IMG/VR virus record: IMGVR_UViG_3300028920_000038
Coordinates: 73,848-137,847 of that record
DNA: 64,000 bases
DNA from: a virus
Strand: one strand, 5' to 3'
Shown here: positions 1 through 48,647 of the stretch, one piece after another
How positions within the stretch are numbered: position 1 is the first letter of the stretch
How the letters are laid out: each line of letters starts with the position of its first letter
The notes under the pieces: model-generated
Told to the model about the DNA's origin: nothing
Seen by the model: the letters and a program-made list of their open reading frames with translations, nothing else
Databases searched by the model: none
Translations under genes and position numbers: made by a program

Positions 1-1
1 A

Positions 2-100
2 AGTGTTATAGTACATGGGAATGGATTAGCAGATGGAATTGGAATGAAAGAAGAGTTAGATTTATTTTATTGTAAATTGATAGGTGATAGTCATGACTAA
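2..100 (+). CDS. Partial (5'-truncated) glycosyltransferase C-terminus, possibly PLOD-GT-like
   Basis: Open frame 2 from the window edge reads SVIVHGNGLADGIGMKEELDLFYCKLIGDSHD*. The VHGNG motif resembles the C-terminal motif of PLOD-type GT domains, and the stop overlaps the next gene start. Confidence 0.4.
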   Translation, partial: SVIVHGNGLADGIGMKEELDLFYCKLIGDSHD

Positions 101-1100
101 GATATCAGTATTATTAGCAACAAATAGAGTAAATAGGAATGTATTCCCATATATACAAAAGTGTGTAGATGGATTAGATTATTTACAAGAAGATACATTT
201 ACAGATGAATTCTATGAATTGTGTAATAATACATTATTGAATATACAATACCATTTCTTAGAGACTTCTCTTATATCTCTTTCAAATCAAAAATTCAAAG
301 ATTTTGAAGTTATTATATCTCATAGATATCCAAAAGATGCAGAGATGATAGTTAAGGAATATGTAGATAATTATAATGTCCCAATTAGATTAGTGAAAGA
401 GAAGCATTCGGTATGGCATGATTTAGGAGAACAATACCATACAGTAGCTAATAATAAGAATACCGCATTCATAAATTCATCTGGTGAATTGATATATCAT
501 ATAGATGATCTTACATTTTTTAATGAAAATCTTTTACAAGAAGCTTGGGATGAATATCAAAATGGTAATTATATGACTGGAAGAACGGTAAGGTGTATAA
601 CATATGATAAAAATTTAGAAAACTCGATAGATAAAGTGGGACCTAATAAGATACAAATAACTAAGAATGGTTGGACTGGACAAAAGAAACCTTTAACTAA
701 CGATAAATACATTCCTATGAATATGTTTTGGACTTGCAGTGCATCTGTATCGGCAGAGGAATTATTAGAGATAAATGGATATGATGAGTTATATGATGGA
801 TCATTAGCTGGAATAGATATGGATGCTGGAAATAGGTTATCACGTATTAGTAATTATAATAGAATAGCTAGCGAAAATTACCTATATGAAATAGATGATC
901 CTACACCGAAGAATATGGTTAGAGATGATGTTCTTATGAGAAAGATATTTAGAGTAAGTCATATAAGAGCTAATTCTTGGAAACCTAAAAAATTTCAGAT
1001 TAGGAGATATGAGAATTGGCATAAACATACATTAGGAGAATTAGATCCTAATTGGGATAAATTTATGGACATTCCATTTTATAATATAGAGAGAATATGA
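93..1100 (+). CDS. GT-A fold (GT2-like) glycosyltransferase
   Basis: ISVLLAT N-terminal strand, DFEVIIS, SSGELIYHIDD (DxD-like), GYDELYDG..G.D.DAG.RL. Start moved to ATG 93 behind GGTGAT at 83-88. Confidence 0.75.
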   Translation: MTKISVLLATNRVNRNVFPYIQKCVDGLDYLQEDTFTDEFYELCNNTLLNIQYHFLETSLISLSNQKFKDFEVIISHRYPKDAEMIVKEYVDNYNVPIRLVKEKHSVWHDLGEQYHTVANNKNTAFINSSGELIYHIDDLTFFNENLLQEAWDEYQNGNYMTGRTVRCITYDKNLENSIDKVGPNKIQITKNGWTGQKKPLTNDKYIPMNMFWTCSASVSAEELLEINGYDELYDGSLAGIDMDAGNRLSRISNYNRIASENYLYEIDDPTPKNMVRDDVLMRKIFRVSHIRANSWKPKKFQIRRYENWHKHTLGELDPNWDKFMDIPFYNIERI

Positions 1101-1777
1101 AAATAGAAAATATTAAATATCATCTAGTTGCTAATCATAAAATAGCATACAAATTAAATTCTGAAGAAATACTAAATGAAAATTCTGTAATTTTTGACTG
1201 TGGTGCATATGTTGGGAAATTTACAGAAGAAATATTTAGATTAATTAATCCTAATATAAATATGTTTTTATACGAACCTAATATAATTTTATATAAAAAA
1301 CTAGTAGATAAATTTGAAAATAAGGAGAATGTAAATATTTTTAATAAAGCAATTTCAAATAAAGTTGGTTTTAATAATTTGTATTTAGGTAAAAATTTGA
1401 ATGAGAGTAGTTTAAAAAAATCAAAGAAAGGATTGACTAATGATTATTTAAATGTAGAAACAACAACTATACCGAATGAAATAATAAAATTAAATTTAAA
1501 GTATATAGATGTTATAAAATTAAATGTAGAAGGAGAAGAATTAGATATTATAAATAATTTAGATAAAGGTGTTCTAGAGAAAATAGGACAATTTGCTGTT
1601 GCATTTCATTTAAATAATGGAATAAAAGATTATACACAAGAAATTCATGATAATACTATAAAATATATGATAAATAATGGATTTACTTCTAGTAATTACT
1701 ATAAAAATAAACATAAATTATTTTTTAATGAAAAGTGGTATAATACTGACAAATATAAGGAGTTAAGATATGGATAG
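1097..1777 (+). CDS. FkbM-family SAM-dependent methyltransferase
   Basis: VIFDCGAYVG, LYEPN, NKAIS, IDVIKLNVEGEE motifs. Confidence 0.85.
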   Translation: MKIENIKYHLVANHKIAYKLNSEEILNENSVIFDCGAYVGKFTEEIFRLINPNINMFLYEPNIILYKKLVDKFENKENVNIFNKAISNKVGFNNLYLGKNLNESSLKKSKKGLTNDYLNVETTTIPNEIIKLNLKYIDVIKLNVEGEELDIINNLDKGVLEKIGQFAVAFHLNNGIKDYTQEIHDNTIKYMINNGFTSSNYYKNKHKLFFNEKWYNTDKYKELRYG

Positions 1778-2777
1778 AGAAATATTAATAACTGGAGGAT
1801 GTGGTTTTATAGGACATCATCTAGCAGAGCATTTATTGAAAAACACTAATTGGAATATAAAAATACTGGATAGTTTGACATATGCAGGCATACAAAAAAG
1901 AATAACAGATATGGGAGCTTATAAAGATAATAAAGATAGAATAAAATTTATATTTCATGATTTAAGAGCAGAATTAAATAAAACAACTATAAAAGATTTA
2001 GGACAATTAGATTATATTGTTCATATGGCTGCAGAGACACATGTAGATAATAGTTTAATAGATGCTAGACCATTTATAGAAACAAATGTTATTGGTACTA
2101 TGAATTTATTAAATTATATAAAAGATAATGATATCGGATTAAAACGGTTTATTAACTTCAGTACTGATGAAGTTTATGGATCTGCTCCGGATGATTATGA
2201 TTATAAAGAAGATGATAGATGGAGACCTTCTAATCCGTATTCTGCTAGTAAATGTGGACAATCTGCATTAGGAATTGCTTATGCAACATCATTTGGTTTA
2301 CCTATTATACATACTTATACAATGAATGTTTTTGGGGAGAGACAACATCCAGAGAAATTAATACCTAAAACTATAAGAACATTTAAAGAAGGGAAACCAA
2401 TGACAATTCATTGTAAAAAAGAAGGAGATAAAGTTACAGAAATAGGAAAAAGATATTGGCTCCATGCAAGAAATGCATCCGATGCAGTTCTATTTCTGTT
2501 AGATAAGGGTAAAAATAATGATCACTATAATATAGTAGGAGATATAGAATTAACCAATTTGGAGATGACAGATAAAATAGCTAAATATATGGGATTAGAT
2601 AATCCAAAGTATGATTTTGTAGATTTTCATAAAACTAGACCAGGCCATGATAGAAGATATTCTCTAGATGGAAATAAACTACGGAAAATGGGATGGAAAG
2701 CAAAAGTAGATTTTGAAGAATCTTTAGACAGAACCGTAAAATGGTCTATTAATAATATGGATTGGCTATATTTATGA
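1770..2777 (+). CDS. rfbB: dTDP/NDP-glucose 4,6-dehydratase
   Basis: ITGGCGFIG, HMAAETHVDNS, STDEVYG, YSASK, RPGHDRRYSLD motifs. Confidence 0.93.
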   Translation: MDREILITGGCGFIGHHLAEHLLKNTNWNIKILDSLTYAGIQKRITDMGAYKDNKDRIKFIFHDLRAELNKTTIKDLGQLDYIVHMAAETHVDNSLIDARPFIETNVIGTMNLLNYIKDNDIGLKRFINFSTDEVYGSAPDDYDYKEDDRWRPSNPYSASKCGQSALGIAYATSFGLPIIHTYTMNVFGERQHPEKLIPKTIRTFKEGKPMTIHCKKEGDKVTEIGKRYWLHARNASDAVLFLLDKGKNNDHYNIVGDIELTNLEMTDKIAKYMGLDNPKYDFVDFHKTRPGHDRRYSLDGNKLRKMGWKAKVDFEESLDRTVKWSINNMDWLYL

Positions 2778-3991
2778 AACATAAAATAAGGAATGAATGT
2801 CTAATATGTAAAAATAAGAATCTTCACAAATTTTTAGAATTAGGGAACATGCCTCTCCCTAATAAATTTATAGATAAAGAGGAATTTAATAATGAGGAGT
2901 TCTATCCATTAAATGTATACGTTTGTGATAAGTGTTTTCTTGTACAATTAAAGGATATTATAGATCCAAAACTTCTATTTGATGATTATTTGTATATGAC
3001 AGGAACTTCAAAGCCATTGGTGGATCATTTAAAAACTTTAGCAAAAGATTCTCTGAAATATCATAAAGATGGTTTAGTTATAGATATAGGATGTAATGAT
3101 GGAACTCTATTAAAACATTATAAAAAATTAAATTTTAATACTATTGGAATAGACCCTGCAAAGAAAATAACAGATATTGGAAAAAAAGAAGGATTAAATA
3201 TTATAAATGATTATTTTAGTAGTAAGTGTGTAAAAAAAATATTAGAAATGTATGGGAAAGCTAATATAATAACAGCAACAAACGTATTTGCACATACAGA
3301 AGATATAAAAACTATAATAGAGGGAGTTCGTGATTTATTGACAGAGGATGGAGTATTTATTATAGAAGTTCATCATTTGATGAATCTTATATTAAATAAT
3401 GAATTTGATACTATATATCACGAGCATATATCATATTTTAGTTTATCATCTCTAATTCATCTTTTTAATTTATATGATATGACAATAATAGATGTTAGAG
3501 AAATATCTAATCATGGAGGATCATTAAGAGTTTTTATTAAAAAAACTGGAACTCCTTCAGATAATGTTTTTAAAATAATTGATAAAGAAAAAGAATTAGG
3601 TTTGTATTCTTTAGATACATATAATAATTTCTCAGAAAAAGTTAATGATATAAAAGATGAATTGATTGATACATTAAAAAATTTAAAAGAAAATGGAAAT
3701 AGAATTACTGGATATGGAGCTACAGCTAAAGGAAATATACTATTAAACTATTGTAATATTGGTCCTGATATTCTAGATTATATTAGTGATAGAACTCCAT
3801 TTAAATGTGGGAAATATAGTCCAGGGATGCATATCCCTATAATATCTGAAGATAAATTTCATGATGACAATCCAGATTATGTTTTATTATTGGCTTGGAA
3901 TTATAAGGATAATATATTAATTAAGGAAGATAAATTCAGAAAAAATGGTGGAAAATTTATAATTCCTATACCTAAACCAGAAATATTATGA
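2774..3991 (+). CDS. NDP-hexose C-methyltransferase (Zn-binding N-terminus + SAM domain + C-methyltransferase C-terminus)
   Basis: CLIC...C..C zinc motif, DIGCNDG, YHEHISYFS, HGGSLRVF, GYGATAKGN. Start at ATG 2774 overlaps the upstream TGA (ATGA). Confidence 0.9.
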   Translation: MKHKIRNECLICKNKNLHKFLELGNMPLPNKFIDKEEFNNEEFYPLNVYVCDKCFLVQLKDIIDPKLLFDDYLYMTGTSKPLVDHLKTLAKDSLKYHKDGLVIDIGCNDGTLLKHYKKLNFNTIGIDPAKKITDIGKKEGLNIINDYFSSKCVKKILEMYGKANIITATNVFAHTEDIKTIIEGVRDLLTEDGVFIIEVHHLMNLILNNEFDTIYHEHISYFSLSSLIHLFNLYDMTIIDVREISNHGGSLRVFIKKTGTPSDNVFKIIDKEKELGLYSLDTYNNFSEKVNDIKDELIDTLKNLKENGNRITGYGATAKGNILLNYCNIGPDILDYISDRTPFKCGKYSPGMHIPIISEDKFHDDNPDYVLLLAWNYKDNILIKEDKFRKNGGKFIIPIPKPEIL

Positions 3992-4635
3992 TAGTTTATA
4001 CTTCAATTTTTAATAATAATGATAGATTACCAGAACCATTAATTAAGAATAAAAATATAGAATATATTTGTTTTACAGATGGGCTCAAAAGAAGCAAAAA
4101 ATCTATATGGAAAATAAAAACTGTGGATGGAATATACGATGGAACTAGGAATAATAGATATTATAAAATAAATTCTCATTTATTTTTTCCATCAGAAGAG
4201 ATTGTATTATATTTAGATCCAACATTTCTAATAATAAAGGATTTTTATAATAAAATTGAGGAATGGCTTGGAGATAAAGACATAGCTATTAGACCTCATC
4301 CTAAGAGAAAATCTATATATGAAGAAGCTGAATATTTAATAAATAATAAACCACATAAGATAGATAGTAAAGAATTAATTATAAAACAAATGAATATGCT
4401 TAAAAATGAAGATTATCCTGAATCTGAACCTTTATGTGAAGGAGGATTTATTATTAGAAGAAACACTGAACAAGTTAAGAAATTTAATGAGATGTGGTGG
4501 AATATAGTAAAGAATTATAGTAAGAGAGATCAATTGAGTTTTAATTATGTATCATGGAAATTAGGAATAGGTTATAATTTAATAGAGAGAAAGGAAGTTG
4601 AAGAATATACCAGGAGAATAGCATGGCATCCTTAA
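3988..4635 (+). CDS. DUF616 (TOD1/MUCI70-like) putative glycosyltransferase
   Basis: IVYTSIF, YICFTD, NRYYKINSH, HPKRKSIYEEA, W...SKRDQLSFNYV motifs. Confidence 0.85.
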   Translation: MIVYTSIFNNNDRLPEPLIKNKNIEYICFTDGLKRSKKSIWKIKTVDGIYDGTRNNRYYKINSHLFFPSEEIVLYLDPTFLIIKDFYNKIEEWLGDKDIAIRPHPKRKSIYEEAEYLINNKPHKIDSKELIIKQMNMLKNEDYPESEPLCEGGFIIRRNTEQVKKFNEMWWNIVKNYSKRDQLSFNYVSWKLGIGYNLIERKEVEEYTRRIAWHP

Positions 4636-5363
4636 GAAAGTTAGTAGTATTAACTACAGTTGGATTAACAGATTATGTTATAGGAGCATTAGAATCTCTT
4701 AAAGAAGAAGAAGCTGATATACTCCTTATAGATGATGGAAGTTCAGTAGATTATTCTTATATAATTAATAATTATGAAATAGATTTAATACAAAAGAAAA
4801 AAGGTAAAGGAGTTACAGATTCATGGAATATAGCATATAAATTATTTAAAGATAATTATGATTATTGTTTATTTTCTAATGATGATGTAATATTCCCAGG
4901 AAGAGTACCTCCTGATATGTGGAATGGTTTGGAGAAATATATATTTTTAGGTCCTTTATCTGATCCTATAGGAAGTGGTAGATTCATGGGTAATTTTCAG
5001 AATATTACTACGTATCTTAGAGGAGTAAAAGATTTTAAAGATGTCAAATTAATTCAGAATAGATTACAAAAGATACATCCTAATAAAAAGTATCTAGAAA
5101 TAGGTAAAGATATAGTATTTCAAAGAAAAGAACCTCCATATATTAATGGCTTTTGTTTTTCTTTTAATAAGGATATAATTGAATATGAATTTCAAAAGGA
5201 TATTTTATTTAATCCAAAGTATACAAATTCTGGAAATGATAAAGAATTGCAGAGAGATCGATTAAATAAAGGAAAGGCAATATCTATTAAATCTTATATA
5301 TTTCACTATAAAGGAGGAACAATAGACCCTTATAGTAATACAAGACAGGAGATTATTAATTAA
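4623..5363 (+). CDS. GT2-family glycosyltransferase
   Basis: LLIDDGS, G...SWN, LFSNDDVIF, NGFCF, GND.E, YIFHYKGGT motifs. Confidence 0.85.
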   Translation: MASLRKLVVLTTVGLTDYVIGALESLKEEEADILLIDDGSSVDYSYIINNYEIDLIQKKKGKGVTDSWNIAYKLFKDNYDYCLFSNDDVIFPGRVPPDMWNGLEKYIFLGPLSDPIGSGRFMGNFQNITTYLRGVKDFKDVKLIQNRLQKIHPNKKYLEIGKDIVFQRKEPPYINGFCFSFNKDIIEYEFQKDILFNPKYTNSGNDKELQRDRLNKGKAISIKSYIFHYKGGTIDPYSNTRQEIIN

Positions 5364-6178
5364 TGATAATAATTACGATAGATGGTTTAAATTGGGATAC
5401 AGCTAATAAATACTGTAAAGATATATTTGAAAATCAAAATATGAAAAAAATAAAAAATAATGTTAGATTATTTACAAATACACCAGATTCGGGCCAACCT
5501 ACTCTTGTCGGTCTTACGTGTCTTTGGAGTGGAGAAAAAATTAGAAACTTTGATAAAAATTTATTTGCTAGGGTAAATCCAAAATACAATGAGAATTATA
5601 AACTCTCATTTAAAGATAAGAGTGGAAATGATTTTGATTTAATATTTAACTATTTTAATAAACCAAAAATTCAACTATCTCATCATGGAGGAAATCCTTA
5701 TTCAAATAATGAAAAATATTTTAAATACTGGACAACACTAGAACCAAAAGTAAGAATATGCCCATCTGAAGAATGGTGTATAATACCTGAATTATTAAAG
5801 AAAGATTATGATTTTTTTCATATTCATACAGAAATTGGTAAGATAGGAGTATTACAACATGGTCCTTACGAACAAGGGAGAATGCCTGCTTGTATTCCTT
5901 ATGATCAAATAAGACAAGATAAAGAATTAAAAAAAGAAGTATATTTATTTGGTCTTAAAAGATGGATATTTATTATTAAAGAATATTTATCAAAGATGAT
6001 TGATGATACAATAATAATAACAGCAGATCATGGAACATCATTAGAAAAAATATTCAAACCAGAATACATTGATGACATTCCATTAATAATTAATAGAGAT
6101 GTAGATTTATCAAATGTGACATATCAATGGGAATTAAAAAATTTTATAGTCGATTTAAATGAAAGATATAAAGAATAA
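5363..6178 (+). CDS. Alkaline phosphatase/sulfatase superfamily enzyme (candidate phospho/phosphono-transferase or hydrolase)
   Basis: IIITIDGL first metal motif, Thr nucleophile region (QPTLVGLTCLWSG), FFHIH, IIITADHG. Confidence 0.7.
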   Translation: MIIITIDGLNWDTANKYCKDIFENQNMKKIKNNVRLFTNTPDSGQPTLVGLTCLWSGEKIRNFDKNLFARVNPKYNENYKLSFKDKSGNDFDLIFNYFNKPKIQLSHHGGNPYSNNEKYFKYWTTLEPKVRICPSEEWCIIPELLKKDYDFFHIHTEIGKIGVLQHGPYEQGRMPACIPYDQIRQDKELKKEVYLFGLKRWIFIIKEYLSKMIDDTIIITADHGTSLEKIFKPEYIDDIPLIINRDVDLSNVTYQWELKNFIVDLNERYKE

Positions 6179-6503
6179 ATTTGGAGTTCCTTGCAGTCAA
6201 TTGAAAGAGTATTTAGATGGAACTGAAATACCTTGTACTTCTGAAGTTGAAGCGATGGCAATGGCTGCAGGAGCTTGGTTTGCAGGTAAAAAACCAGAAG
6301 TTTATATGCAAAATAGTGGACTAGGACATATAGTGGATATTGTGTCTAGTTTATATAAACCTTATAAAATTCCATTACCAAGAATGTATTTGAGTATTAG
6401 ATTCAAACCAAAACATCATTATGATATGTTTTTATATACTCCTTCTATTCTATTATTAATGGAATATGATGATGTTTTTGAGATCATGCAAGATGACAAC
6501 TAG
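6159..6503 (+). CDS. ppd: Phosphonopyruvate decarboxylase alpha subunit (TPP PYR domain, ComD-like)
   Basis: GVPCS, EVEAMAMAAGAWFAG, VYMQNSGLG motifs; clustered with pepM. Confidence 0.85.
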   Translation: MKDIKNKFGVPCSQLKEYLDGTEIPCTSEVEAMAMAAGAWFAGKKPEVYMQNSGLGHIVDIVSSLYKPYKIPLPRMYLSIRFKPKHHYDMFLYTPSILLLMEYDDVFEIMQDDN

Positions 6504-6969
6504 AAAAAAATCTATAGAAAAAATTTTGGAATTAAATCAAAATTCATTAATTATATCATCTGCAGGTTATACATCTAGATCCTTATATGAAGTTAAAGAT
6601 GCTCCAAATCATTTTTATATGATGGGATCAATGGGATGTGCATTACCATTTGCTATTGGATTAGCTTTAAATACTGATAAGGAAGTGGTAGCTATAATCG
6701 GAGATGGAGAATTATTAATGAATTTTAGTTCTCTTATACAAACTGAGAATTTAAAATTAGATAATTTAACTATTTATATATTAGATAATAATATGTATCA
6801 ATCAACTGGAGGACAAAAGACTATTAGTGAATATATTCCAAAGTGTGGATTTAATGTATGGACTATTAGTATAGAAGATGATCATATACCTCCAAGGATT
6901 CCTATAAGTCATAAAGAAATATCGGAGAGATTCTATGAGCACATTAATGGTGTGCAGCAAATCAACTAA
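6493..6969 (+). CDS. ppd: Phosphonopyruvate decarboxylase beta subunit (TPP-binding PP domain, ComE-like)
   Basis: FYMMGSMG, AIGLAL, GDGELLMN, ILDNNMYQSTGGQ. Start moved to ATG 6493. Confidence 0.85.
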   Translation: MTTRKKSIEKILELNQNSLIISSAGYTSRSLYEVKDAPNHFYMMGSMGCALPFAIGLALNTDKEVVAIIGDGELLMNFSSLIQTENLKLDNLTIYILDNNMYQSTGGQKTISEYIPKCGFNVWTISIEDDHIPPRIPISHKEISERFYEHINGVQQIN

Positions 6970-7558
6970 AAAATATACTAAACTGTATAATTATGATGAA
7001 TTATTAATAGTGAAAGAACCTCCAAATAAAGAAACTTTAAAAAAGAAAGATCTTTATCATAATGTTGTAGCAATAGGAGGAGGAAGTGTCATAGATACAG
7101 CTAAGATTTTAAGTATGAATTCAGTGATAGCTATTCCTACTACATATTCTGGAGCATCTGAGACTTCTCATGCAGTCTATTGGGATAATGGAATGAAATA
7201 TGATATAGAATGTATTAAACCTATATCTGTTTTGAGAAAAGAATTTATAAATTTACCTAAACATATTGAAGTAGCTACTAAAATAGATTGCATTTCTCAT
7301 ATTATAGAAAGTTTAATTTCAAAGAATTCTACCATAGATTCTGATAAATACGCTCTTATAGCTATTAATTTTATAAAAGAAGATAAATGGTTAGAAGCAA
7401 GTATATATGCTGGTAAGGCTATTGATATAACTGGTACCAATATTATACATGCTATGTCCTATTCATTAACTGGGGTATATGAATTACCTCATGGAGTATC
7501 TTTGTTAAAAATATTTGAATTAGCTAAACATTATAAGAAATTAGAGGAATTATTATGA
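6935..7558 (+). CDS. Iron-containing alcohol dehydrogenase, probable phosphonoacetaldehyde reductase (compact form)
   Basis: [35 protein letters not shown] metal ligands; lies between ppd and pepM. Confidence 0.8.
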
Positions 7559-8826
7559 AAACCGTTTATGTAGGAATGTCAGCCGATTTTATTCATGATG
7601 GTCATATAAATATAATAAATATTGCTAGAAATTATGGTAATATAATAATAGGACTATTAACTGATGAAGCTATAGCATCATATAAAAGAGTACCTTTATT
7701 GTCTTACGAAAAAAGGAAAAAGATATTAGAGAATATAAAATATGTATATAAAGTAGTGCCACAGAAAACATTAGATTATACCGATAATCTTAAGAAATAT
7801 AAACCAAATTACGTTGTACATGGAGATGATTGGAAAAAAGGAATACAAAAAGAAATAAGAAATAAAGTTATAGAAACTTTAAAAGAATGGAATGGAGAAT
7901 TAATTGAACCTGAATATACAAAAGGTATATCATCTACATTACTTATAAACGATAAATTAAATCAAGGAGTTACACCTAATTATAGAAGAGGTAAATTGAA
8001 AAAGCTTCTAGAATTAAAGTCATACATAAGAATATTAGAAGCTCATAGTGGTATATCTGGTATAGTTGTAGAAAGATCTAATTATAATGGAAAAGAATTT
8101 GACGGGATATGGATATCAAGTTTGACAGATTCTACTTCTAAAGGAAAACCAGACATAGAAATAGTAGATTTTACATCAAGAATACAAACCATTAATGAGA
8201 TATTAGAAGTAACCACTAAACCTATTATAGTAGATATTGATACAGGAGGTCAAATAGATCATTTTGTATATATGATAAAAACCTTAGAAAGACTAGGAGT
8301 ATCTGCAATTATAGTAGAAGATAAAACATTTCCTAAAAGGAATTCACTGTCAGAAGGAGAAATTCACATACAAGAAGATAAAGAGACATTTTGTAGAAAG
8401 ATAAGAGCTGGAATACAATCTAGAATAACAGATGATTTTATGATAATAGCTAGAATAGAATCATTTATAACCGGAGAAGAAGTTGATCTTGCATTAAATA
8501 GAGCTAAAGACTACATAGAAGCTGGTGCAGATGGTATTATGATACATAGTAAAAAGAGTAATCCCAAAGATTTAATATTATTTTGTGATGAATATAAGAA
8601 ATTTAAAAATAGAGTTCCATTAATTTTAGTTCCTACTACATATAATTGGATGAAAGAAGAAGAGTTAAATTCTTTAGGTGCTAATATTATTATATATGCT
8701 AATCATCTATTAAGATCATCATATAAATCTATGAAAGAAGTAGCTAAAGAAATATTAAAAAATGAAAGAAGTTTAGAAGTAAATGATATGTGTACAAGTG
8801 TTAAGGAGATATTAGAATTAATATGA
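7555..8826 (+). CDS. pepM: Cytidylyltransferase-phosphoenolpyruvate mutase fusion
   Basis: N-terminal HDGH (HxGH) NTase with VVHGDDW; C-terminal LEAHSG, SSLTDS..GKPD, DIDTGG and the PepM signature [10 protein letters not shown] (EDK-X5-NS). Confidence 0.95.
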
Positions 8827-9656
8827 TAATTGGTATAATAGGATTCGGAATGGTTGGTAGAGCAATACATCATGGTTTTGCTCAAATATGTGATTTTAAA
8901 ATTTATGATAAAGATAAGAAATTATCAGAAAATACATTAAAAGAAACTTTAGTAAATAGTGATTTTATATTTATATGTGTGCCTACTCCAATGAAAAAAG
9001 AAAATGGAGAAATAGATTTAAAATCTTTAGATAGTACATTGTCTTACGCTAATAAATATATACCAAGAGAAGATAAAATATTGATTATTAAATCAACAAT
9101 AGTTCCAGGTACTACAGATAGTTATATAAAAAAATATCCAAATCTAAATATTATATTTAATCCAGAATTTCTAACAGCTCGTACATCTAAATTGGATTTT
9201 ATTAATTCGTCTAGAGTCATATTGGGAGGGGATCCTAAATTAACCAGTAGAGTAGCAGATTTATATGGAAAAAGATTTACACATACTCCTATTTATCTAA
9301 CAGACGCAAGAACAGCTGAATTAGTTAAATATACAGCTAATTGTTTCTTTGCGACTAAGGTTTCGTTTTTTAACGAAATTTTTGATATATGCCGAAAGTT
9401 AGATATAAGATATGAAGATGTAAGAGATATGACATTAGCGGATGGGAGAATAGGCAATTCTCATACAGATGTTCCAGGTCATGACGGTTTAAGGGGATTT
9501 GGTGGATTATGCTTTCCAAAGGACCTTAATTCTATGATATACAAAGCTGAAGAATTAGGTGTAGATCCTAAAGTTATGAAAGCTGTATGGGAAAAAAACA
9601 TTGAAGTAAGAGAAAAGAAAGATTGGGAGAAAATCGAAGGTGCGGTCTCAGATTAA
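8823..9656 (+). CDS. ugd: UDP-glucose/GDP-mannose dehydrogenase family (lacks the C-terminal domain)
   Basis: [45 protein letters not shown]. Confidence 0.85.
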
Positions 9657-10347
9657 AAAAGCTGTAATTCCTGCAGCTGGTTTAGGTACTAGATTCTATC
9701 CTATAACCAAATGTATACCAAAAGAAATGTTACCTATAAAAAATAAGCCTATAATTCATTATGTCATTGATGAAGCAATTCAATCTGGAATTACTGATAT
9801 AGCAATTATAACAAGAAAAGGCAAAACAGTAATAGAAGATTATATAGATGAAATGAATTTTGAGGCTAATTTCTATTACTTAAGACAGAAATACCCAATG
9901 GGATTAGGTCATGCAGTACTAACAGCAGAAGGATTTATAGGAGAAGAAGACTTTGCTGTACTTTTAGGAGATGATCTATTAGATAATAATAGGGATCTAC
10001 AAAATATGATGAAATTAAATCACTGCATAGCAGTGGAATCTGTAGTAGATCCGAGTAAATATGGAGTAGTATCTATTAAAGATAATAAAATAATAGATAT
10101 AATTGAAAAACCAAAAAAGAATGCTCCGAGTAATTACGGAGTAGTGGGTAGATACATTCTACCTTATAAAATATTTAAATATATTAAAAAACAAAAGACA
10201 GATGAAAATGATGAGATTCAACTAACATACGCAATTCGGGATATGATAAGAGAAGGATATTCTTTTAGTCCTTATTATCTAACCGGAAAGCGTTATGACT
10301 GTGGAACTCCAGATTCGTATAAGGGCTGTTTTTTGGACTATTTTTAA
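9640..10347 (+). CDS. galU: UTP-glucose-1-phosphate uridylyltransferase-like sugar-phosphate nucleotidyltransferase
   Basis: KAVIPAAGLGTRF, PKEMLP, Q..P.GLGHAV, LGDD, IIEKP, EIQLT, DCG motifs; GTG start. Confidence 0.85.
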   Translation: MRSQIKKAVIPAAGLGTRFYPITKCIPKEMLPIKNKPIIHYVIDEAIQSGITDIAIITRKGKTVIEDYIDEMNFEANFYYLRQKYPMGLGHAVLTAEGFIGEEDFAVLLGDDLLDNNRDLQNMMKLNHCIAVESVVDPSKYGVVSIKDNKIIDIIEKPKKNAPSNYGVVGRYILPYKIFKYIKKQKTDENDEIQLTYAIRDMIREGYSFSPYYLTGKRYDCGTPDSYKGCFLDYF

Positions 10348-10462
10348 GTACCCTTACCTATACCATTCGTTTTAAAAAAAGGTGTTATAGTAACTAATTT
10401 TGAGTCAATTTTTAGGAACTATTCCTAATTTTTGAGCTTTTTTTTAAATAGGGTCACCTTAA
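10348..10462. terminator. Convergent intergenic region with oligo-T tracts and a short hairpin; candidate terminator
   Basis: Lies between convergent stop codons; TTAGGAA-cta-TTCCTAA inverted repeat flanked by T runs, plus an A7 run (T7 on the minus strand). Confidence 0.4.
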
Positions 10463-10948
10463 TTATAACCCTGAAGATCCACTAACAAACCCTTCTATTT
10501 TTGTGTGGATCCAATCTATAGTATCTAAAGTAGTTGTAGTTATATTTTTTACATATAGGAGAGTGTTTTTTCTCATATTTTTTAGATTAGACCCATTCAT
10601 AGCAGATGAGCTTGGTGTAGGATATAATCTTAAAGTATTCTCTCCAGTCCATGTCTGATCATAATAAGTAGGTCTACCAAGAATCTTATATAACTCTCCA
10701 GTTGCTCCAGGGGTTACATTAGACATTAGGGTATTTAATTGTGTTTCATCTAACCAAGTTGAGACTGTTACAGAGTAATTCTCAACATCCCAGCGAGAAC
10801 ACTTACAATCTATAAAATCGTCTCCATCTAAGGAATTATAAAAAATAGCTAAATCATTTTCAAATTTAAATAACGTAGGGATATCTCTAAAAGTGATACC
10901 TTCATCATCATCGAAATGATAAGTAAAAGAATAGTGACTTGTTGGCAT
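10463..10948 (-). CDS. Tail-tip protein, conserved ~120-aa domain (paralog 1; Dit/gpM-like by inference)
   Basis: FIDCKCSRW...NVTPGATGELYKILGRPTYYDQTWTGENTL...KIEGFVSGSS, near-identical to the C-termini of 16727 and 17611. Confidence 0.55.
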   Translation of the reverse strand: MPTSHYSFTYHFDDDEGITFRDIPTLFKFENDLAIFYNSLDGDDFIDCKCSRWDVENYSVTVSTWLDETQLNTLMSNVTPGATGELYKILGRPTYYDQTWTGENTLRLYPTPSSSAMNGSNLKNMRKNTLLYVKNITTTTLDTIDWIHTKIEGFVSGSSGL

Positions 10949-10995
10949 ATTAATCTAAATGTGGATATATTATGATATTACGATAATACCATAAT

Positions 10996-11214
10996 CTAAG
11001 TTATTACATCCTCATCTATTTCAGGACTTAATGATTCTTGTGCTATTCTTATTTTACCACTTTTATATATTCTCTTAATTGTAAAAACTATTTTATCTTT
11101 AATCCACTGATTATCAGTTCCTTCCCAATCGTCTGGTATTGGATATATTTTAAGGAATCCAGCTTTGAATTCTTCCAATTTTTCATCAGGAACTGTTAAT
11201 GTTAATTCTACCAT
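10996..11214 (-). CDS. Small hypothetical protein (possible fibre assembly factor)
   Basis: 72-aa ORF with a GAGG-type RBS in the tail block. Confidence 0.5.
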   Translation of the reverse strand: MVELTLTVPDEKLEEFKAGFLKIYPIPDDWEGTDNQWIKDKIVFTIKRIYKSGKIRIAQESLSPEIDEDVIT

Positions 11215-11252
11215 TTTAACCTCTTCTTTCTTTAATTTATAAACATATTAAA

Positions 11253-11930
11253 TTAAATATTATATGAACCTGAAACCCAAGCCCATGAAGTAGGGTTTCC
11301 ACTTGGATAAAAATAATTCGAAGATGAACTAATAACTCCCCATTTCCAATTAGTCGGTTCATCTGAAGTTGCTCTAATTCCACTATCAACATTGAATTGA
11401 CCTGAATTCCACACCCAAGATGTAGGAGAGCCAACAAGAGTTATGAATTTACTATAATAACTGCCTTCCTCTTCACAAGTATAATATACGTACATTTTAA
11501 CATAATCTACATACATACCTCCTTCATTGATATCTGTATTAGCAACAGCTTTTAATGCTATTCCAGATGGAAAATCAGATAGATCCTCACCCCAATCATC
11601 ATCTTGTGCTCCAGCTGTCTCTATACTATGATCTGGATATTCAGTAAATTCTCCTGTTTCTTTACCGTCTGAAAAAGTCTGACCACTATCTATTGATATA
11701 TACATTATTAAAGATGGAGAACTTCCTTCTACAGTTCCTTTAGCTTTAGCTTCTGCTACTATGCCATCTACTTGATAAATTTCACAATCAAGATTAAAAT
11801 CATGTCCTCCTACTGTAACGTATTCTCCATCGGAAAGAATTGTTGAACAACCTCCATCCTCCAAAACGCAACCAGAATAATTTACATCAGAATCTATTAC
11901 ATTACTAAAAAAAGTGCTATCAGATGACAT
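11253..11930 (-). CDS. Virion protein: beta-sandwich domain plus Trp-rich C-terminal module
   Basis: MYVDYVKMYVYY jelly-roll-like ending; C-terminal SPTSWVWNSGQFNVDSGIRATS module shared with 38897. Confidence 0.55.
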   Translation of the reverse strand: MSSDSTFFSNVIDSDVNYSGCVLEDGGCSTILSDGEYVTVGGHDFNLDCEIYQVDGIVAEAKAKGTVEGSSPSLIMYISIDSGQTFSDGKETGEFTEYPDHSIETAGAQDDDWGEDLSDFPSGIALKAVANTDINEGGMYVDYVKMYVYYTCEEEGSYYSKFITLVGSPTSWVWNSGQFNVDSGIRATSDEPTNWKWGVISSSSNYFYPSGNPTSWAWVSGSYNI

Positions 11931-11934
11931 AGTA

Positions 11935-12468
11935 TCAAATTAGATTAATTAAATCGTTACTTAAATTTTGTCCATAGTAAATTTCATTGTTTACTACAGA
12001 ACTCGATGCATTTGCATAATTGTAAAGCCAATGGAATTCATAAGTTTCTAGCATATTATAAGATAGATATCCTTGTATTCTATCTACTTCTTCATTATAT
12101 TTTAATGTACTAAAGCTATACTCTAACAGAGAATGAGCTTCGCTGATACCGCTAGAATTACCAAAATCATATAATATTAATTCACAAATAGCCAAATCAT
12201 CTTTAATATCCCACTGAAAATAAGATGTCATATTAGAACCACTAAATGCACCATAACCAACTTTATTAGCTGATGGATGGTTACATAAACTAACGTTAGA
12301 TATATCACTAGAATAAATACGTTTTCCCTTCCACAAATCTACTAATTCATTATCATCAAGATGTCTATTAGTATGGTTGGAATTACTACTTTGCCATGAT
12401 CTATAATATTCATACAAATAATACACATCAACGATATCATCTTCAATTATTTCTCTATATGTAATCAT
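11935..12468 (-). CDS. Hypothetical protein, possible degenerate GNAT fold
   Basis: MITYREIIEDD start, GYGAF...YF beta strands, SLLEYSFSTLK helix; canonical acetyl-CoA motif A is weak. Confidence 0.35.
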   Translation of the reverse strand: MITYREIIEDDIVDVYYLYEYYRSWQSSNSNHTNRHLDDNELVDLWKGKRIYSSDISNVSLCNHPSANKVGYGAFSGSNMTSYFQWDIKDDLAICELILYDFGNSSGISEAHSLLEYSFSTLKYNEEVDRIQGYLSYNMLETYEFHWLYNYANASSSVVNNEIYYGQNLSNDLINLI

Positions 12469-12480
12469 AATTAATCGTTA

Positions 12481-15400
12481 TTAAGTAGACAGACCTAGCT
12501 GTATCCATTCCCAGCTATTCGCATCATTCTTAACTGACATAAATATCCATGTCTTCTCATCAGTGCCACCAGATACTCTAATTATCTCACCCTTATGATT
12601 TGTAGCAGTAGGTTTAGATGAATATAGATTAGTTAATACCTGCATACCTGATATTTGACTACTAGTTGCCATAGAATTAATAATAGATCCACTTATCTTC
12701 GTATTACCGGATAAATAGATATTTCCGTATCCACCAGTATTTATAGAAACTGACCCACTACCAATAATATTAATATATGGATATGAATCTAATGTATCTC
12801 CATATAACCATAATTCACTTCCAGTAGATGAATCGCCCATAATAACAGATTGATTTGCACCAGCATTATATTGAAATTTAAAAGATTGAGTATCTTCTTC
12901 ATAAAATTTTATATCATTTTTTGTCCGTAATTCTATTTCCTCGTCTCCTTTTAGACGTATGTGTGGGAAATCAGTAGCAGTATTCGCATATATTCTCAAA
13001 TCGTTTCCTGCTTCATCAGGTCCATATAATTTAGCAATTGTAGAAGTACCTGAGAATGTAAATTGAGTATCAGTCTTATTTCTTATTCTAAAGAATCCAC
13101 CATCATTTGGCCCATAAGATGCAACAATAGAACCAGAACCATTCAAAGTTATATATGGATAATCATCATCTGAGTTTGCTTTTATTTCTAAATCATCACT
13201 AGTATCAGCCCCTCCTTGGATAAAACTATCTGCGCCATTAAGATAAAATTTAGCAATCTGTGCTGCTTCATTAAAAATCTTAAAACTTGTAGCGTCTTGA
13301 ATTTTTAAATAAGATGCATCTCCAATATTCATTTCGATACGTGGATAATTTGCACCATCTCTTGCATAAATCCACAAATCAGCACTAGCATTTGTATTAC
13401 CATAGAACTTTGAAATAGGATCATCTATAGTAAACTTGAACATTTGAGTAGAACCGCTCTTGAAATAAATGTTTTCAGTTGTACCTATAACTGTATCTCC
13501 ATCTGCTTGTATAGCAATTCCACTAACTCCACCAGCTACTAGATTTGCTTGGTCTGATTTTAATGCTAGGTAGGTATCTGAATCCCCTACGTGTTCTACT
13601 TTCTCAGTAGTTTTTAGATAACTACCTCGAATATTAACTCCGGATATATATGAGGCATTATGAATTCCTTTGCTATTCCAATCCTTATGGTCATCTATAC
13701 TTAAAGCAGATAATGTAGATACACCACCACCTGAACCACCAGATGGCATAGCTACCCAAGCTGAGCCATTCCACATAATACCGGAATTAGTAAATTCATC
13801 AGAATCCCATCCATCGATTTCAGTATCTTCACGGATATGATCTAAACTTCCACCACCACCTGAACCAGCTCCACTTGCAGTTAAGGATATCCAATCACCA
13901 GAATTAGCACTACAGAGATATATATCGCAATTTGTAGTGGAACCTGACATCCATAGATTACCTGCAATTTTTGAAGGTTCAGATCCACCAGGTTTAATAT
14001 ATACCATATTACTGGACATTCTAAATAATGTATCGTGATTATCATATATTCTAAATTGTTGACTACTTGGTATTGTAAGAACTGCATTACCAGAACCTAA
14101 TAATTCCAATTGACATTTTCCTTTAGGTCCGTTATCCACACCATAATTAGGTTTTATTCTCATTCCACTGGCTGATTTATTGGTACCATATATATATGAA
14201 TATGTTCCTACACGGTCAAATAGAAACATTACATTAGATCCATCACTCATGTAGATATCAGGATTACCAGCTACACCTTGAAGATTAATATAACTATTGC
14301 CTACCATATGTATTCTAGGCCAAGTATCAGTAGAATTTGCATTAATACGTAATTTCTCACCAGTACCAGCACCACCTTCTAATATAGAACCAATACTAGA
14401 ACCTGAGTAAAATTTGAATGCTTGGACTCCATTTTCATCTATACGGAAATCATTGCCAGTACCATAGTTAATCTCTACAGAACCACCACCAAACATTCTT
14501 AACCAAGGTATCATATCTGTACTATTTGCATGAATATAAAGGTCTCCAGTAGAATTACTTCTACCCTCTATTACAGAATTATCACTACCAGAAAGATAAA
14601 ACTTAGCTATTTGAGTATCTTTACTCTTAATATAAACATTTCCAGATGCATTAATATCGATATGAGAACTATCGTAAAGAGTTATTAGAGGCCAAAGTTT
14701 ATCATCAGTTCCTTGTATGTTGAGATTACCAGCAGAGCCACCTTCTATGTAATTATTACCACCTTGTTTATTAAATTTGAACATCTGCGTTGTATTATTA
14801 AGAAACTGTATGACACTTCCATCAGCACAACCCATCTCTACATTTCCACTACCGTATAAAAATAAACCTGCTCTTTTATCAGTATCATTTGCATAGATGT
14901 ACAAGTCTCCTCCAGTAGGGTCTGGTCCTCGAATATATGAGTTACCAGCAGTATAATTAAATCGAAACATCTGCGTGCCTTGTTCCTTGAAGTAAATATC
15001 AGCGTAGGAATCTATATTTATATTACTACTTCCAACCATATCAATATATGGATATGAATAATCTTCATGTGCTTTCCAATTAAATCGAGCTCCATTTGTT
15101 GCAGCTCCATCTAGATGAACATCACTATAATTATTATCTGTATAAACTCTAGCAGAATTATGACCTTGATTTCCAAATACTACTTTAGAATTACCAGATG
15201 CGGAAATATAAATATTTCCAGGTACTGTTGCATCACCATCTCCTATCATCCAAATCATTGGATAGGAATCAACTGAATTTGCCTGTATGATTAAATCATT
15301 CTCGTTTGTAGAACCTCCATAAAGATAAGATTGATTAGTACCATAAACAAACTTAAATGACTGTGTGCCTTTGTCAGTGAAATAGATGTCATTATTAGAA

Positions 15401-16707
15401 CCTAATATCAAATCACTATCAGAAGATATATAAGGGATATTAGTGATACCATGTCCATCCCAATCTTTATCTATATCTATAGATAAATCGCTTAAATTGG
15501 AAGCTCCACCTTCTGCTGCTTCTGTTAGAGATTTCCATTCACCTCCTGTACCTGATTTGTAGTATAAATCAGATGAGGATAAGCTTCCAGAGAACCAGAT
15601 AACACCACCAACATTCGGTGGTTGATTACTAGATGGCATTATTCTAAAATATGAATAGTAAGGGCTAAAATCAAGTTTAGTAGATCCTTCTAACCATACT
15701 CTAAAATTGGAGTCCGTATTAGCTGGAATATCAAATCCTGCAATTCCATAACTAGTACCAGAACCATAAAGTCTTATCATTGGATATGTATTATTTTCAC
15801 TTGCTATTATTTGTAAATTTCCAGATACATTAGATCCATATATTTTAGAAAGAGAAAGAGATTTAGCAAATTTAAACATCTGCGTGCCCTGTTCTCTAAA
15901 AAAGATGTCCGCTTCAGAATCTAAAATAAGATTAGTATTAGCAGTATCGGTATTAATTATAGACTCTCCACCAACTAGCTTAAACTCAAACATTGGACTT
16001 GCTTGCTCATAAAAATTAATATTCTGATATGCAGCTAAAGTAATATCCCCCTGGCCATAAACACCAAGATATCCATTTGCGGCAGCATTAGTATTTGCTT
16101 GTATGACAACATCATGATTTGCATCAGTGCCTCCTTTAATATAGCTCTTATCACTTCCATCCCATTCAAACTTAAACATCTGCGTATTCTGTTCTTTGAA
16201 GAGTATATCCGCATAGCTAGTTACAGTAATATTTTCTTGTCCTTCAATAAAGATATTTCCATTTAATTGAGAATTACTATTAGCAGCTAACATTAAATTC
16301 ATTGTTGCACTAGTACCACCATACATAATTTTATTACTTCCAGCAGATGTGAATGTGAATATACGATTATCCTTTAATCTGAAATAAATATCTCCATAGG
16401 TATCTAGGTATATATTTCCACTACCTTCCAATATCATTCTACTATAAGGAGATAATGAGTTCGCCATAATATGTATATCTTCTCTATAACTATCTGCTCC
16501 GTAAAGAATTGATTTAGTTCCTGCATCATATTCAAATTTAAAAAATTGGTTGCCATCATCTTCAAAGTAAATATCATCAGAAGTATTAAAATGTTTCCAG
16601 CGAGCAGACTCACTCGGATTATGACAAATTGCACCTGACATAGTATTCCAATTGGTATAGGTGATAGTATCACCACTAGCCATCGTATCGAACCAATTTG
16701 TAGCCAT
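12481..16707 (-). CDS. 1408-aa tail fibre/spike with many ~55-60-aa beta repeats
   Basis: Repeated DIYFxEQGTQMFKF...GG....DL.I.ANS.D.YPYI.L.GSG units; Gly-rich linkers. Confidence 0.7.
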   Translation of the reverse strand: MATNWFDTMASGDTITYTNWNTMSGAICHNPSESARWKHFNTSDDIYFEDDGNQFFKFEYDAGTKSILYGADSYREDIHIMANSLSPYSRMILEGSGNIYLDTYGDIYFRLKDNRIFTFTSAGSNKIMYGGTSATMNLMLAANSNSQLNGNIFIEGQENITVTSYADILFKEQNTQMFKFEWDGSDKSYIKGGTDANHDVVIQANTNAAANGYLGVYGQGDITLAAYQNINFYEQASPMFEFKLVGGESIINTDTANTNLILDSEADIFFREQGTQMFKFAKSLSLSKIYGSNVSGNLQIIASENNTYPMIRLYGSGTSYGIAGFDIPANTDSNFRVWLEGSTKLDFSPYYSYFRIMPSSNQPPNVGGVIWFSGSLSSSDLYYKSGTGGEWKSLTEAAEGGASNLSDLSIDIDKDWDGHGITNIPYISSDSDLILGSNNDIYFTDKGTQSFKFVYGTNQSYLYGGSTNENDLIIQANSVDSYPMIWMIGDGDATVPGNIYISASGNSKVVFGNQGHNSARVYTDNNYSDVHLDGAATNGARFNWKAHEDYSYPYIDMVGSSNINIDSYADIYFKEQGTQMFRFNYTAGNSYIRGPDPTGGDLYIYANDTDKRAGLFLYGSGNVEMGCADGSVIQFLNNTTQMFKFNKQGGNNYIEGGSAGNLNIQGTDDKLWPLITLYDSSHIDINASGNVYIKSKDTQIAKFYLSGSDNSVIEGRSNSTGDLYIHANSTDMIPWLRMFGGGSVEINYGTGNDFRIDENGVQAFKFYSGSSIGSILEGGAGTGEKLRINANSTDTWPRIHMVGNSYINLQGVAGNPDIYMSDGSNVMFLFDRVGTYSYIYGTNKSASGMRIKPNYGVDNGPKGKCQLELLGSGNAVLTIPSSQQFRIYDNHDTLFRMSSNMVYIKPGGSEPSKIAGNLWMSGSTTNCDIYLCSANSGDWISLTASGAGSGGGGSLDHIREDTEIDGWDSDEFTNSGIMWNGSAWVAMPSGGSGGGVSTLSALSIDDHKDWNSKGIHNASYISGVNIRGSYLKTTEKVEHVGDSDTYLALKSDQANLVAGGVSGIAIQADGDTVIGTTENIYFKSGSTQMFKFTIDDPISKFYGNTNASADLWIYARDGANYPRIEMNIGDASYLKIQDATSFKIFNEAAQIAKFYLNGADSFIQGGADTSDDLEIKANSDDDYPYITLNGSGSIVASYGPNDGGFFRIRNKTDTQFTFSGTSTIAKLYGPDEAGNDLRIYANTATDFPHIRLKGDEEIELRTKNDIKFYEEDTQSFKFQYNAGANQSVIMGDSSTGSELWLYGDTLDSYPYINIIGSGSVSINTGGYGNIYLSGNTKISGSIINSMATSSQISGMQVLTNLYSSKPTATNHKGEIIRVSGGTDEKTWIFMSVKNDANSWEWIQLGLST

Positions 16708-16726
16708 ATTTATCTATTTCCTATAA

Positions 16727-22547: not shown

Positions 22548-22552
22548 ATTGT

Positions 22553-48273: not shown

Positions 48274-48282
48274 TTAAATCAC

Positions 48283-48564: not shown

Positions 48565-48647
48565 AATTCCAACCTCTTATTTAACATCGAAATTTTAACA
48601 TAAAATATAAAAGAACATTAAAACATATTTGTAATAATAGATCATTA

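Follow-up and report, generated by a model that had tools for sequence, protein, structure and literature searches.

Phosphonates account for much of the dissolved organic phosphorus in the sea, and their producers had been assumed to be cells. The locus analysed here is a four-gene cassette at positions 6159-8826 of a stretch of viral DNA (the window) that comprises the final 64 kb of the 137,847-bp IMG/VR record IMGVR_UViG_3300028920_000038. Its closest described counterparts are the early steps of the fosfomycin pathway and the gene clusters for cellular phosphonoglycans. In the first of these, Fom1, Fom2 and FomC of Streptomyces wedmorensis, the PF01467 cytidylyltransferase (CyTase) domain of Fom1 transfers CMP from CTP onto 2-hydroxyethylphosphonate (HEP) to form CMP-HEP (Rice et al., PMC6697681). 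In the second, described from Pelagibacteraceae, Neomarinimicrobiota and Bacteroidales (Acker 2022, Li and Horsman 2022), a fusion of CyTase with phosphoenolpyruvate (PEP) mutase (PepM) lies with its partner enzymes in a glycan context. Viral examples are few: Li and Horsman (2022) searched RefSeq viruses and 364 huge phages without finding a PEP mutase, and listed among their surprises one pathway to 2-aminoethylphosphonate (AEP) on a metagenome-assembled genome (MAG) of a giant virus (nucleocytoplasmic large DNA virus, NCLDV), where it sits beside sugar genes and was read by the authors as a viral phosphonoglycan (PMC8942020). A 2025 paper reports a PepM-cytidylyltransferase fusion on Borg elements. 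Phosphonate enzymes are not mentioned in a survey of Bathyarchaeia viruses, and full-text searches, with subscription journals outside their coverage, returned no description of PepM or phosphonopyruvate decarboxylase (Ppd) in tailed viruses.

The cassette in the window shares with the Fom system the same four predicted activities and the same PF01467-PepM fusion. It differs in that the decarboxylase is split and shortened, the Fe-type alcohol dehydrogenase (ADH) is about half the size, the genes lie in a viral glycan island and not in an antibiotic cluster, and the virus lacks Fom3 (a B12-radical S-adenosylmethionine (SAM) enzyme), FomD and HppE. With the cellular phosphonoglycan clusters it shares the glycan context, the same partners and a fusion protein of 50-60% identity, whereas the 25 cellular genomes of GTDB that hold a related fusion encode next to it one decarboxylase chain of 364-386 aa and an ADH of 364-382 aa. 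The NCLDV case differs both in its carrier, a eukaryotic giant virus as opposed to a tailed virus, and in its enzymes, which are a PepM-Ppd fusion and an AEP transaminase where the window has split miniature enzymes and a predicted HEP route. The chemistry is known; what is new is the tailed-virus carrier, the recurrence of the cassette in such viruses and the miniature, split enzymes. We consider it likely that this tailed virus encodes its own route from PEP to a CMP-activated two-carbon phosphonate.

Predicted enzymes and product of the cassette

The four open reading frames (ORFs) are consecutive on the plus strand, with overlaps of 4-38 nt. The last of them encodes a 423-aa protein that is a predicted PEP mutase with a Fom1-like predicted cytidylyltransferase. 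Pfam assigns PEP_mutase to residues 148-401 (4.5e-53) and CTP_transf_like (PF01467) to residues 9-131 (2.2e-16). The protein passes the NCBIfam equivalog model for PEP mutase, TIGR02320, with 366.6 bits against a cut-off of 319.55, and the next-best family for the PepM part, phosphonopyruvate hydrolase, scores 157.9 bits against a cut-off of 374.4. The ten residues 255-264 of the translation form the motif EDK-X5-NS, which sets true PEP mutases apart from their isocitrate-lyase relatives, and E255, D256, K257, K261, N263 and S264 are invariant among 11 relatives. In the Protein Data Bank (PDB) this part matches the Mytilus PepM 1m1b (1.3e-48) in an alignment that spans the Mg- and substrate-binding residues (active-site Asp, Glu, Lys, Asn, Ser, Arg and His). 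The CyTase domain carries HDGH (HxGH) and GISST (ISxT), and its residues 3-130 match PDB entry 5x3d (1.8e-48), which was deposited as phosphoenolpyruvate phosphomutase and which we take to be the CyTase domain of Fom1.

The first two ORFs encode the putative subunits of a thiamine-diphosphate decarboxylase. The 114-aa product has no match in a Pfam search; it matches the alpha subunit of a solved phosphonopyruvate decarboxylase (9iz3_A, 2e-6) and the models TIGR03297/TIGR03845 (~1e-14). The 167-aa product matches TPP_enzyme_C in Pfam (1.4e-17) and the beta subunit of the same solved enzyme (9iz3_B, 4.4e-19). In an alignment with four full-length enzymes the smaller subunit keeps GVPCS (GVPxS), the catalytic Glu and YMQNSGLG, and the larger keeps GSMG, GDGE...MN and LDNN..STGGQ, so that the thiamine-diphosphate machinery is intact by alignment, with the catalytic Glu in the PYR part and GDG...N(N) in the PP part. 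Relative to the full-length enzymes, the strand at the N terminus is gone, as are a loop, the PYR-domain linker region and ~30 residues close to the C terminus of the PP domain; the smaller subunit is missing segments at both of its ends. On the question of phosphonopyruvate or sulfopyruvate as substrate, the Ppd and ComDE models give the halves similar scores; Ppd is favoured by the constant adjacency to PepM, which the decarboxylase pair adjoins in 27 of 27 loci, and by 9iz3 alpha and beta being the best solved matches. A third point in favour of Ppd is that no coenzyme M genes were recognised among the annotated ORFs, although no dedicated search for them was made.

The third ORF encodes a miniature Fe-type ADH of 207 aa, which exceeds the Pfam gathering scores of both ADH_Fe_C (PF25137, 42.1 against 27) and Fe-ADH (PF00465, 32.1 against 31.3). 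An exhaustive profile-free search revealed a family of short-form ADHs of ~207-290 aa with the same start position as this protein. Across 29 of these, the dinucleotide motif GGG, D54, K57, PT and three of the four metal ligands (D118, H172 and H186) are invariant, and the other ligand, H122, is nearly so. The AlphaFold (AF2) model of the 207-aa protein has a mean predicted local distance difference test score (pLDDT) of 95.9. Compared with Fe-ADHs in Foldseek, it gives a template modelling (TM) score of ~0.8 when normalised to the query and ~0.45-0.49 when normalised to the target, with about half of each target covered.

Together these enzymes would form a short pathway. The PepM domain would isomerise PEP to phosphonopyruvate, and the two-subunit decarboxylase (114 + 167 aa) would remove CO2 to give phosphonoacetaldehyde, pulling the unfavourable mutase equilibrium forward. 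The 207-aa dehydrogenase would reduce phosphonoacetaldehyde to HEP, which the N-terminal CyTase domain, acting like that of Fom1, would join with CMP to form CMP-HEP. This would in turn be the donor from which HEP is placed on a glycan made by the surrounding island. An earlier note, made from the letters of the window alone, had described four coupled ORFs here, with a PepM bearing EDK-X5-NS fused to an HxGH cytidylyltransferase, a Ppd and a reductase, leading to HEP and not AEP. The ORF listing, the TIGR02320 score and the three motifs bear this description out, each pathway step that it named has a fitting gene, and the choice of HEP is supported by the evidence given below. Its identification of the Ppd and the reductase also stands; what it did not mention is that both are far shorter than the canonical enzymes.

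A canonical phosphonopyruvate decarboxylase is a single chain of ~370-375 aa, and a canonical Fe-ADH has ~370-380 aa. Several observations accordingly speak against a working pathway. The decarboxylase totals 281 aa in two chains, with ~25% of the canonical length gone, and the reductase is ~45% shorter than its canonical counterpart; with about a quarter and almost half missing, neither activity nor substrate is assured. Equivalog cut-offs are missed as well. TIGR03297 (cut-off 312.5) gives 54.5 bits for the alpha half and 104.9 for the beta half, compared with 477 bits for a full-length cellular decarboxylase that adjoins PepM; the TIGR03846 score of the beta half is also under its cut-off; and the best NCBIfam match of the ADH, TIGR03405 (Phn_Fe-ADH), reaches 60 bits against a cut-off of 423.7. 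We ascribe these low scores to the shortening itself. Moreover, full-length ADHs from cellular PepM clusters likewise fall under the TIGR03405 cut-off (113-224 bits), which makes this model too narrow to decide the matter.

The missing segments and low scores could mean that the shortened decarboxylase and reductase are inactive remnants, so that only PepM-CyTase works, or nothing does, and no carbon-phosphorus (C-P) product is made during infection. The shortest ADHs, those of G0 and G1, even lack the last helices of the other mini forms. We nevertheless regard decay as very unlikely. The cassette proteins of the window virus and a sister virus (described below) are only 48-67% identical (63% for the 114-aa subunit), yet equal lengths and open frames are preserved. 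Between closer viral relatives dN/dS is 0.03-0.28 for all four genes, and the miniature genes are thus under purifying selection in related viral contigs. The mini families show no variation, or almost none, in their catalytic and cofactor motifs, the fold was modelled with very high confidence, and cellular genomes retain the same mini forms. With their catalytic residues kept, the shortened enzymes look functional; the decarboxylase pair and the 207-aa ADH are best described as shortened variants and not as canonical members, and should function as these enzymes do.

We infer both what the shortened decarboxylase and reductase act on and that HEP is the product. HEP is favoured over AEP because the decarboxylase is followed by an Fe-ADH whose metal site is intact, because neither an Aminotran_5 (class-V, AEP-type) nor a DegT aminotransferase is found in the whole 137.8-kb record, and because the CyTase domain matches 5x3d. 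The order of decarboxylase and intact-metal-site reductase is conserved in every viral mini cassette. Against this, PF01467-PepM fusions are known from AEP-type neighbourhoods too (PMC8942020), so the CyTase domain by itself does not fix which phosphonate is made, and CheckV puts the record at 87% complete, so that a gene lacking here could be located outside the contig. A phosphonate might therefore be made whose final head group is not HEP, either AEP formed by a host transaminase or HEP modified further, through methylation by a methyltransferase or the radical SAM enzyme of the island. Two relatives of the cassette (L092 and L093, below) adjoin Fom3-like B12-radical SAM enzymes, and the island itself holds a radical SAM-SPASM gene and several methyltransferase genes. 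The radical SAM enzyme of the island, however, lacks a B12-binding domain and is encoded ~10 kb away from the cassette, and given this, the conserved reductase and the record without a fitting aminotransferase, we think a different head group unlikely.

A tailed virus, its relatives and cellular copies of the cassette

The contig is a genuine tailed virus (Caudoviricetes). PHROG matches identify a terminase (1.6e-86), a portal (7e-21), a major head protein (9e-12), a protease (3e-14) and a tape measure protein (1.5e-55). Of 187 ORFs, 94 are shared collinearly with a sister virus, the 144.5-kb IMG/VR contig G001, among them all four cassette genes, a 271-aa neighbour of the cassette, a UGD-like gene and the first gene of the virion module past the junction with the island; this last gene (10463-10948) has its orthologue beside the UGD gene in the sister virus. 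The only public run that holds the stretch is a marine sediment metagenome, probably its source. A Logan contig of that run covers 8436-12580 with zero differences and a depth of ~84-88 on both sides of the junction. A chimera is unlikely because this independent contig bridges the island-virion junction. No RNA runs are listed for the stretch, and a promoter and terminator scan at the junction gave nothing beyond chance that bears on the finding.

It is scarcely credible to us that the island is cellular DNA misassembled onto a virus, or a host island flanking a provirus. Such an origin could draw on the lower GC content of the island (25-29% over 1-10000) than of the virion module (31-36% over 10001-64000), on the presence of the mini cassette on cellular contigs too, and on the lack of any listed Logan contig over 7690-8435, although such a hole proves nothing. 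But the island lies mid-record, between replication genes (ribonucleotide reductase (RNR) and family-B DNA polymerase (PolB)) and virion genes; island, cassette and junction gene recur in the sister virus with their relative order unchanged; and the bridging contig is free of differences and of equal depth on both sides. The window contains no tRNA, and there is no integrase among the annotated ORFs, for which no specific search was made.

The host is probably an archaeon, which is a lead and not a result. The virus is probably an archaeal tailed virus because of its archaeal-type PolB, PriL and RadA-like genes (Table 1), the link of the cassette to Bathyarchaeia described below and the sediment source. 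Among cultured phages we found no close relative: the terminase is at most 28% identical to that of any GenBank phage.

The cassette is not confined to this virus and its sister. Scanning IMG/VR with two peptide patterns taken from the PepM alignment gave 36 loci, ~24 of which combine CyTase-PepM with a split decarboxylase (121-145 + 152-164 aa) and a 254-270-aa ADH, and the cassette-bearing viral contigs fall into at least six gene-context groups. The terminase of the window virus has no match in ten other cassette-bearing IMG/VR records, which are for this reason taken to be different lineages. The trait is present in at least three lineages with verified virion genes, namely the window virus, G004 and G006. 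G004 (IMG/VR 3300007511_000001; L098-L107) is 189,182 bp long with direct terminal repeats, is rated complete and has 39% GC. Its PHROG matches (terminase, 5e-62; protease; tail sheath; tail fibres) are those of a myovirus-like phage unrelated to the window virus, and its cassette encodes a 427-aa PepM, a split Ppd of 129 + 154 aa and a mini ADH of 260 aa. G006 carries a T4-type Gp23, the sole Gp23 match among these cassette-bearing records, in which searches for NCLDV capsid and Terminase_6N came back empty, an answer that shows nothing.

In GenBank phages the full-length fusion was found only in two unannotated gut fragments of 6-8 kb, at 47-50% identity. A PEP mutase is also annotated in Vibrio phage Va2 (MW073017.1, L108:3890-5194), but its motif is EDK-X6-NS, with one residue extra, and we did not count it as a verified PepM. 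Va2 is a cultured phage of 128 kb; the annotated protein has a long C-terminal extension, a gene for a thiamine-pyrophosphate (TPP)-binding protein lies 4 kb upstream, and we found no paper on the mutase gene.

In the PepM tree, viral, mini-cassette and unplaced metagenome sequences form a clade (SH-aLRT 96), and all 25 GTDB cellular rows fall outside it. Mini cassettes are nevertheless present in cellular genomes. Two cellular contigs, L059 and L091, have genes in the identical order alpha, beta, mini ADH and CyTase-PepM, with products of 109/157/253/434 aa and 113/155/244/421 aa, respectively; the cellular mini cassette is 64/47/46/62% identical to the proteins of the window. L059, a sediment contig from JGI (1202-15265), has the cassette beside GrpE-DnaK-DnaJ, with a DnaK 86-90% identical to that of Bathyarchaeia, and additionally carries a TagF-like gene and a gene for a 293-aa mini UGD. 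The nearest cellular copy of the cassette is thus on a Bathyarchaeia contig, and L059 represents a possible donor or host lineage. On the 216-kb contig L091 the cassette is accompanied by sulfate-assimilation genes and a Wzx flippase gene. Both differ from the window in their cellular context and in an adjoining gene, TagF-like or for a 754-aa Sulfatase-family protein, that is a likely transferase gene, whereas the virus has only a soluble 271-aa alkaline-phosphatase (AlkP)-like protein. The cellular copies tell against a viral invention: because the mini cassette occurs on cellular contigs, we conclude that the virus captured a cellular cassette that was already miniature, and that the pathway is a captured host trait.

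Two further loci vary the theme. The virus-like L093 (6654-14932; with PolB, RFC-like, Cas4-like and resolvase genes) has a PepM fusion, a split Ppd, two LicD genes, a Fom3-like B12-radical SAM gene and a radical SAM-SPASM gene. A 133-aa ORF without a Pfam match occupies the usual place of the ADH, and the phosphonate made there may differ. L092 (7901-13574), a cellular contig with the NCBI name Woesearchaeota, encodes a Ppd and an ADH of full size, along with a B12-radical SAM enzyme, a further cytidylyltransferase that stands alone and two proteins of the sulfatase family, and resembles a route to 2-hydroxypropylphosphonate.

The earlier note had also held that a virus makes its own C-P compound, with the cassette on the same contig as virion genes, and had raised the possibility of a chimeric join at ~10.4 kb. 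Hallmark genes, the syntenic sister virus and the bridging contig sustain the viral origin of the contig. The making of a C-P compound is supported as a prediction, with the refinements that the virus is a tailed one with archaeal-type replication genes and that other contigs carry the trait too. The note had called for a pepM search of viral databases and a phylogeny against cellular pepM; the former yielded the IMG/VR contigs and the two gut fragments, and the latter the clade that excludes the cellular rows.

The glycan island and its 271-aa AlkP-fold protein

The cassette lies within a plus-strand glycan island of ~20 kb (record ~64.3-84.2 kb), between the replication genes and the convergent virion module (Table 1). 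The island extends ~9.5 kb upstream of the window, where it has epimerase, FkbM, GT1, radical SAM-SPASM, PIG-L and WbqC genes. Its functions include nucleotide-sugar synthesis (GalU-like, UGD-like, dehydratases/epimerases), several glycosyltransferases (GTs) and tailoring by C-/O-methyltransferases, a deacetylase and a radical SAM enzyme. The UGD-like protein lacks the whole C-terminal domain in Pfam and scores 179.6 bits on TIGR03026 (cut-off 189.8); its orthologue in the sister virus has 283 aa and is 66% identical, and shortened UGDs of 261-293 aa are kept in several other viral islands. The GalU/RmlA-like protein scores 231 bits on TIGR01099 (galU), which is under the cut-off.

Table 1. 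Features of the window and of the rest of the record (window coordinates unless marked as record)
Feature	Coordinates	Strand	Evidence
Ppd alpha (PYR-domain) subunit, shortened, 114 aa	6159-6503	+	9iz3_A match, TIGR03297/TIGR03845
Ppd beta (PP-domain) subunit, 167 aa	6466-6969	+	TPP_enzyme_C, 9iz3_B
Miniature Fe-type ADH, 207 aa, predicted phosphonoacetaldehyde reductase	6935-7558	+	Pfam Fe-ADH + ADH_Fe_C
CyTase-PepM predicted bifunctional fusion, 423 aa	7555-8826	+	PF01467 + PF13714, TIGR02320
CyTase domain of the fusion, ~residues 1-137	7555-7965	+	
PepM domain of the fusion, ~residues 146-423	7990-8823	+	
Alkaline-phosphatase-superfamily protein, 271 aa, abuts cassette	5363-6178	+	Fold model
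UGD-like nucleotide-sugar dehydrogenase, shortened, 277 aa	8823-9656	+	UDPG_MGDP_dh_N + central domain (Pfam)
GalU/RmlA-like sugar-1-phosphate nucleotidylyltransferase, 235 aa, final island gene	9640-10347	+	NTP_transferase 5.5e-35
In-window part of glycan-synthesis island upstream of cassette	84-5363	+	Pfam + NCBIfam matches
GT-like	84-1100	+	Island gene
FkbM methyltransferase	1097-1777	+	Island gene
4,6-dehydratase/epimerase	1770-2777	+	Island gene
Sugar C-methyltransferase	2762-3991	+	Island gene
TOD1/MUCI70-like	3988-4635	+	Island gene
GT2	4623-5363	+	Island gene
Start of convergent virion module	10463-28801	-	PHROG matches
Tape measure protein, 2082 aa	22553-28801	-	PHROG, down to 1.5e-55
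Tail fibre	35389-38433		PHROG
Major head protein (HK97-type)	48648-49697		PHROG
Protease	50125-51684		PHROG
Terminase large subunit and portal	Upstream of window on 137.8-kb record		PHROG
Rad51/RadA-like recombinase with SWIM finger	Record 40693-41733 (L007:693-1733)		
Archaeo-eukaryotic primase large subunit (PriL) match	Record 46817-47707 (L007:6817-7707)		PF04104, 30.2 bits against 22.4
Family-B DNA polymerase (PolB)	Record 48102-50429 (L007:8102-10429)		

We infer the identity of both the acceptor and the transferase from this setting. No transmembrane segment is predicted in any island protein, and the record encodes no polytopic membrane protein. With no membrane enzymes in the island, assembly would be cytoplasmic, and virion proteins are therefore the most likely acceptor of an HEP-glycan, with DNA or the host surface as further candidates. 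Virion proteins of mycobacteriophages are reportedly glycosylated in the cytoplasm, and glycans on DNA are also said to occur.

The 271-aa protein whose gene abuts the cassette, upstream of it in one of the two viruses and downstream in the other, has no Pfam match at threshold. Its family comprises 24 clusters with invariant D7, T47, D148, H155, D222 and H223. The AF2 model (pLDDT 84) matches EptC, MCR-1 and others with a Foldseek probability of 1.00. Like AlkP-superfamily enzymes, the protein has the shared core fold, an N-terminal Asp, a Thr at the nucleophile position and a DHG motif, an assignment based on conservation and not on superposition; unlike the named enzymes of that superfamily, it is shorter by ~100-250 residues and has no membrane domain. 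VIA-align gives Z scores of 15-16 over ~205-225 aligned residues, with phosphoethanolamine transferases, LtaS, nucleotide pyrophosphatases, iPGM, phosphonate monoester hydrolases and sulfatases tied within 1 Z unit. In BFVD, one of the top viral matches by structure is R4T8R0, a 249-aa 'phosphodiesterase' of the archaeal Haloarcula hispanica tailed virus 1 (E 5e-6).

On this modelled fold the 271-aa protein is a candidate phosphonyl transferase using CMP-HEP, a role that we consider possible but doubtful; it could instead be a hydrolase or a mutase. The fold singles out no transferase subfamily, and the family also occurs in related viral glycan islands without PepM. At the same time, LicD and TagF-like searches of the record found neither these nor another known CMP/CDP-head-group transferase. 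We had entertained the idea that the protein is specific to phosphonate cassettes and lowered this reading after examining three contexts without PepM (L094:7001-7804, L096:3087-3914 and L097:6792-7601). In two of these islands a GHMP sugar kinase gene and a dual-specificity phosphatase gene are nearby, and in one the family member follows TOD1/MUCI70 and GT2 genes in exactly the order of the window. Close kinship of the family with the 754-aa Sulfatase-family neighbour of the cellular cassette is likewise unsupported, with a profile-comparison probability of 17%.

A hydrolase at this position would suit a different fate of CMP-HEP, in which it is a transient intermediate on the way to a free small phosphonate, such as a fosfomycin-like antibiotic or a released signal, and not a donor for glycan decoration. 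Fosfomycin biosynthesis begins with the same four steps, and cytidylylation is transient there (PMC6697681); the AlkP-like neighbour could be a CMP-phosphonate hydrolase, given that nucleotide pyrophosphatases and phosphonate monoester hydrolases are among its tied fold matches. However, there is no B12-radical SAM methyltransferase here, the island ORFs scanned, in what was not a systematic search, showed no large bi-cupin ORF (HEPD/MpnS/HppE-like), and the cassette sits with overlapping start and stop codons inside an operon for nucleotide sugars and glycosyltransferases. We judge a free product highly improbable, and prefer decoration of a glycan as the fate of CMP-HEP.

Implications of a predicted viral phosphonate pathway

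A complete cassette for HEP synthesis and activation, as its genes predict, is fixed in a lineage of tailed viruses and recurs in about two dozen viral contigs. Phosphonoglycans on virions or infected cells can now be sought, and their possible roles include resistance to phosphatases and glycosidases, masking of particles and keeping other viruses out. Both the 207-aa ADH and the 114 + 167-aa decarboxylase are exceptionally small for their families but have intact active sites, and may be useful for defining a minimal catalytic core. Taken with the archaeal-type replication genes, the Bathyarchaeia link suggests a large virus whose hosts belong to an uncultured group of archaea. Most speculatively, tailed viruses that infect sediment and marine microbes, here probably Bathyarchaeia-like archaea, may coat their virions or the infected cell with an HEP-glycan by means of a captured miniaturised pathway and a new soluble AlkP-fold CMP-HEP phosphonyl transferase. 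We hold this picture as a whole to be rather unlikely, but if it is true, viruses would be a direct and unrecognised source of phosphonate esters in marine and sediment organic matter.

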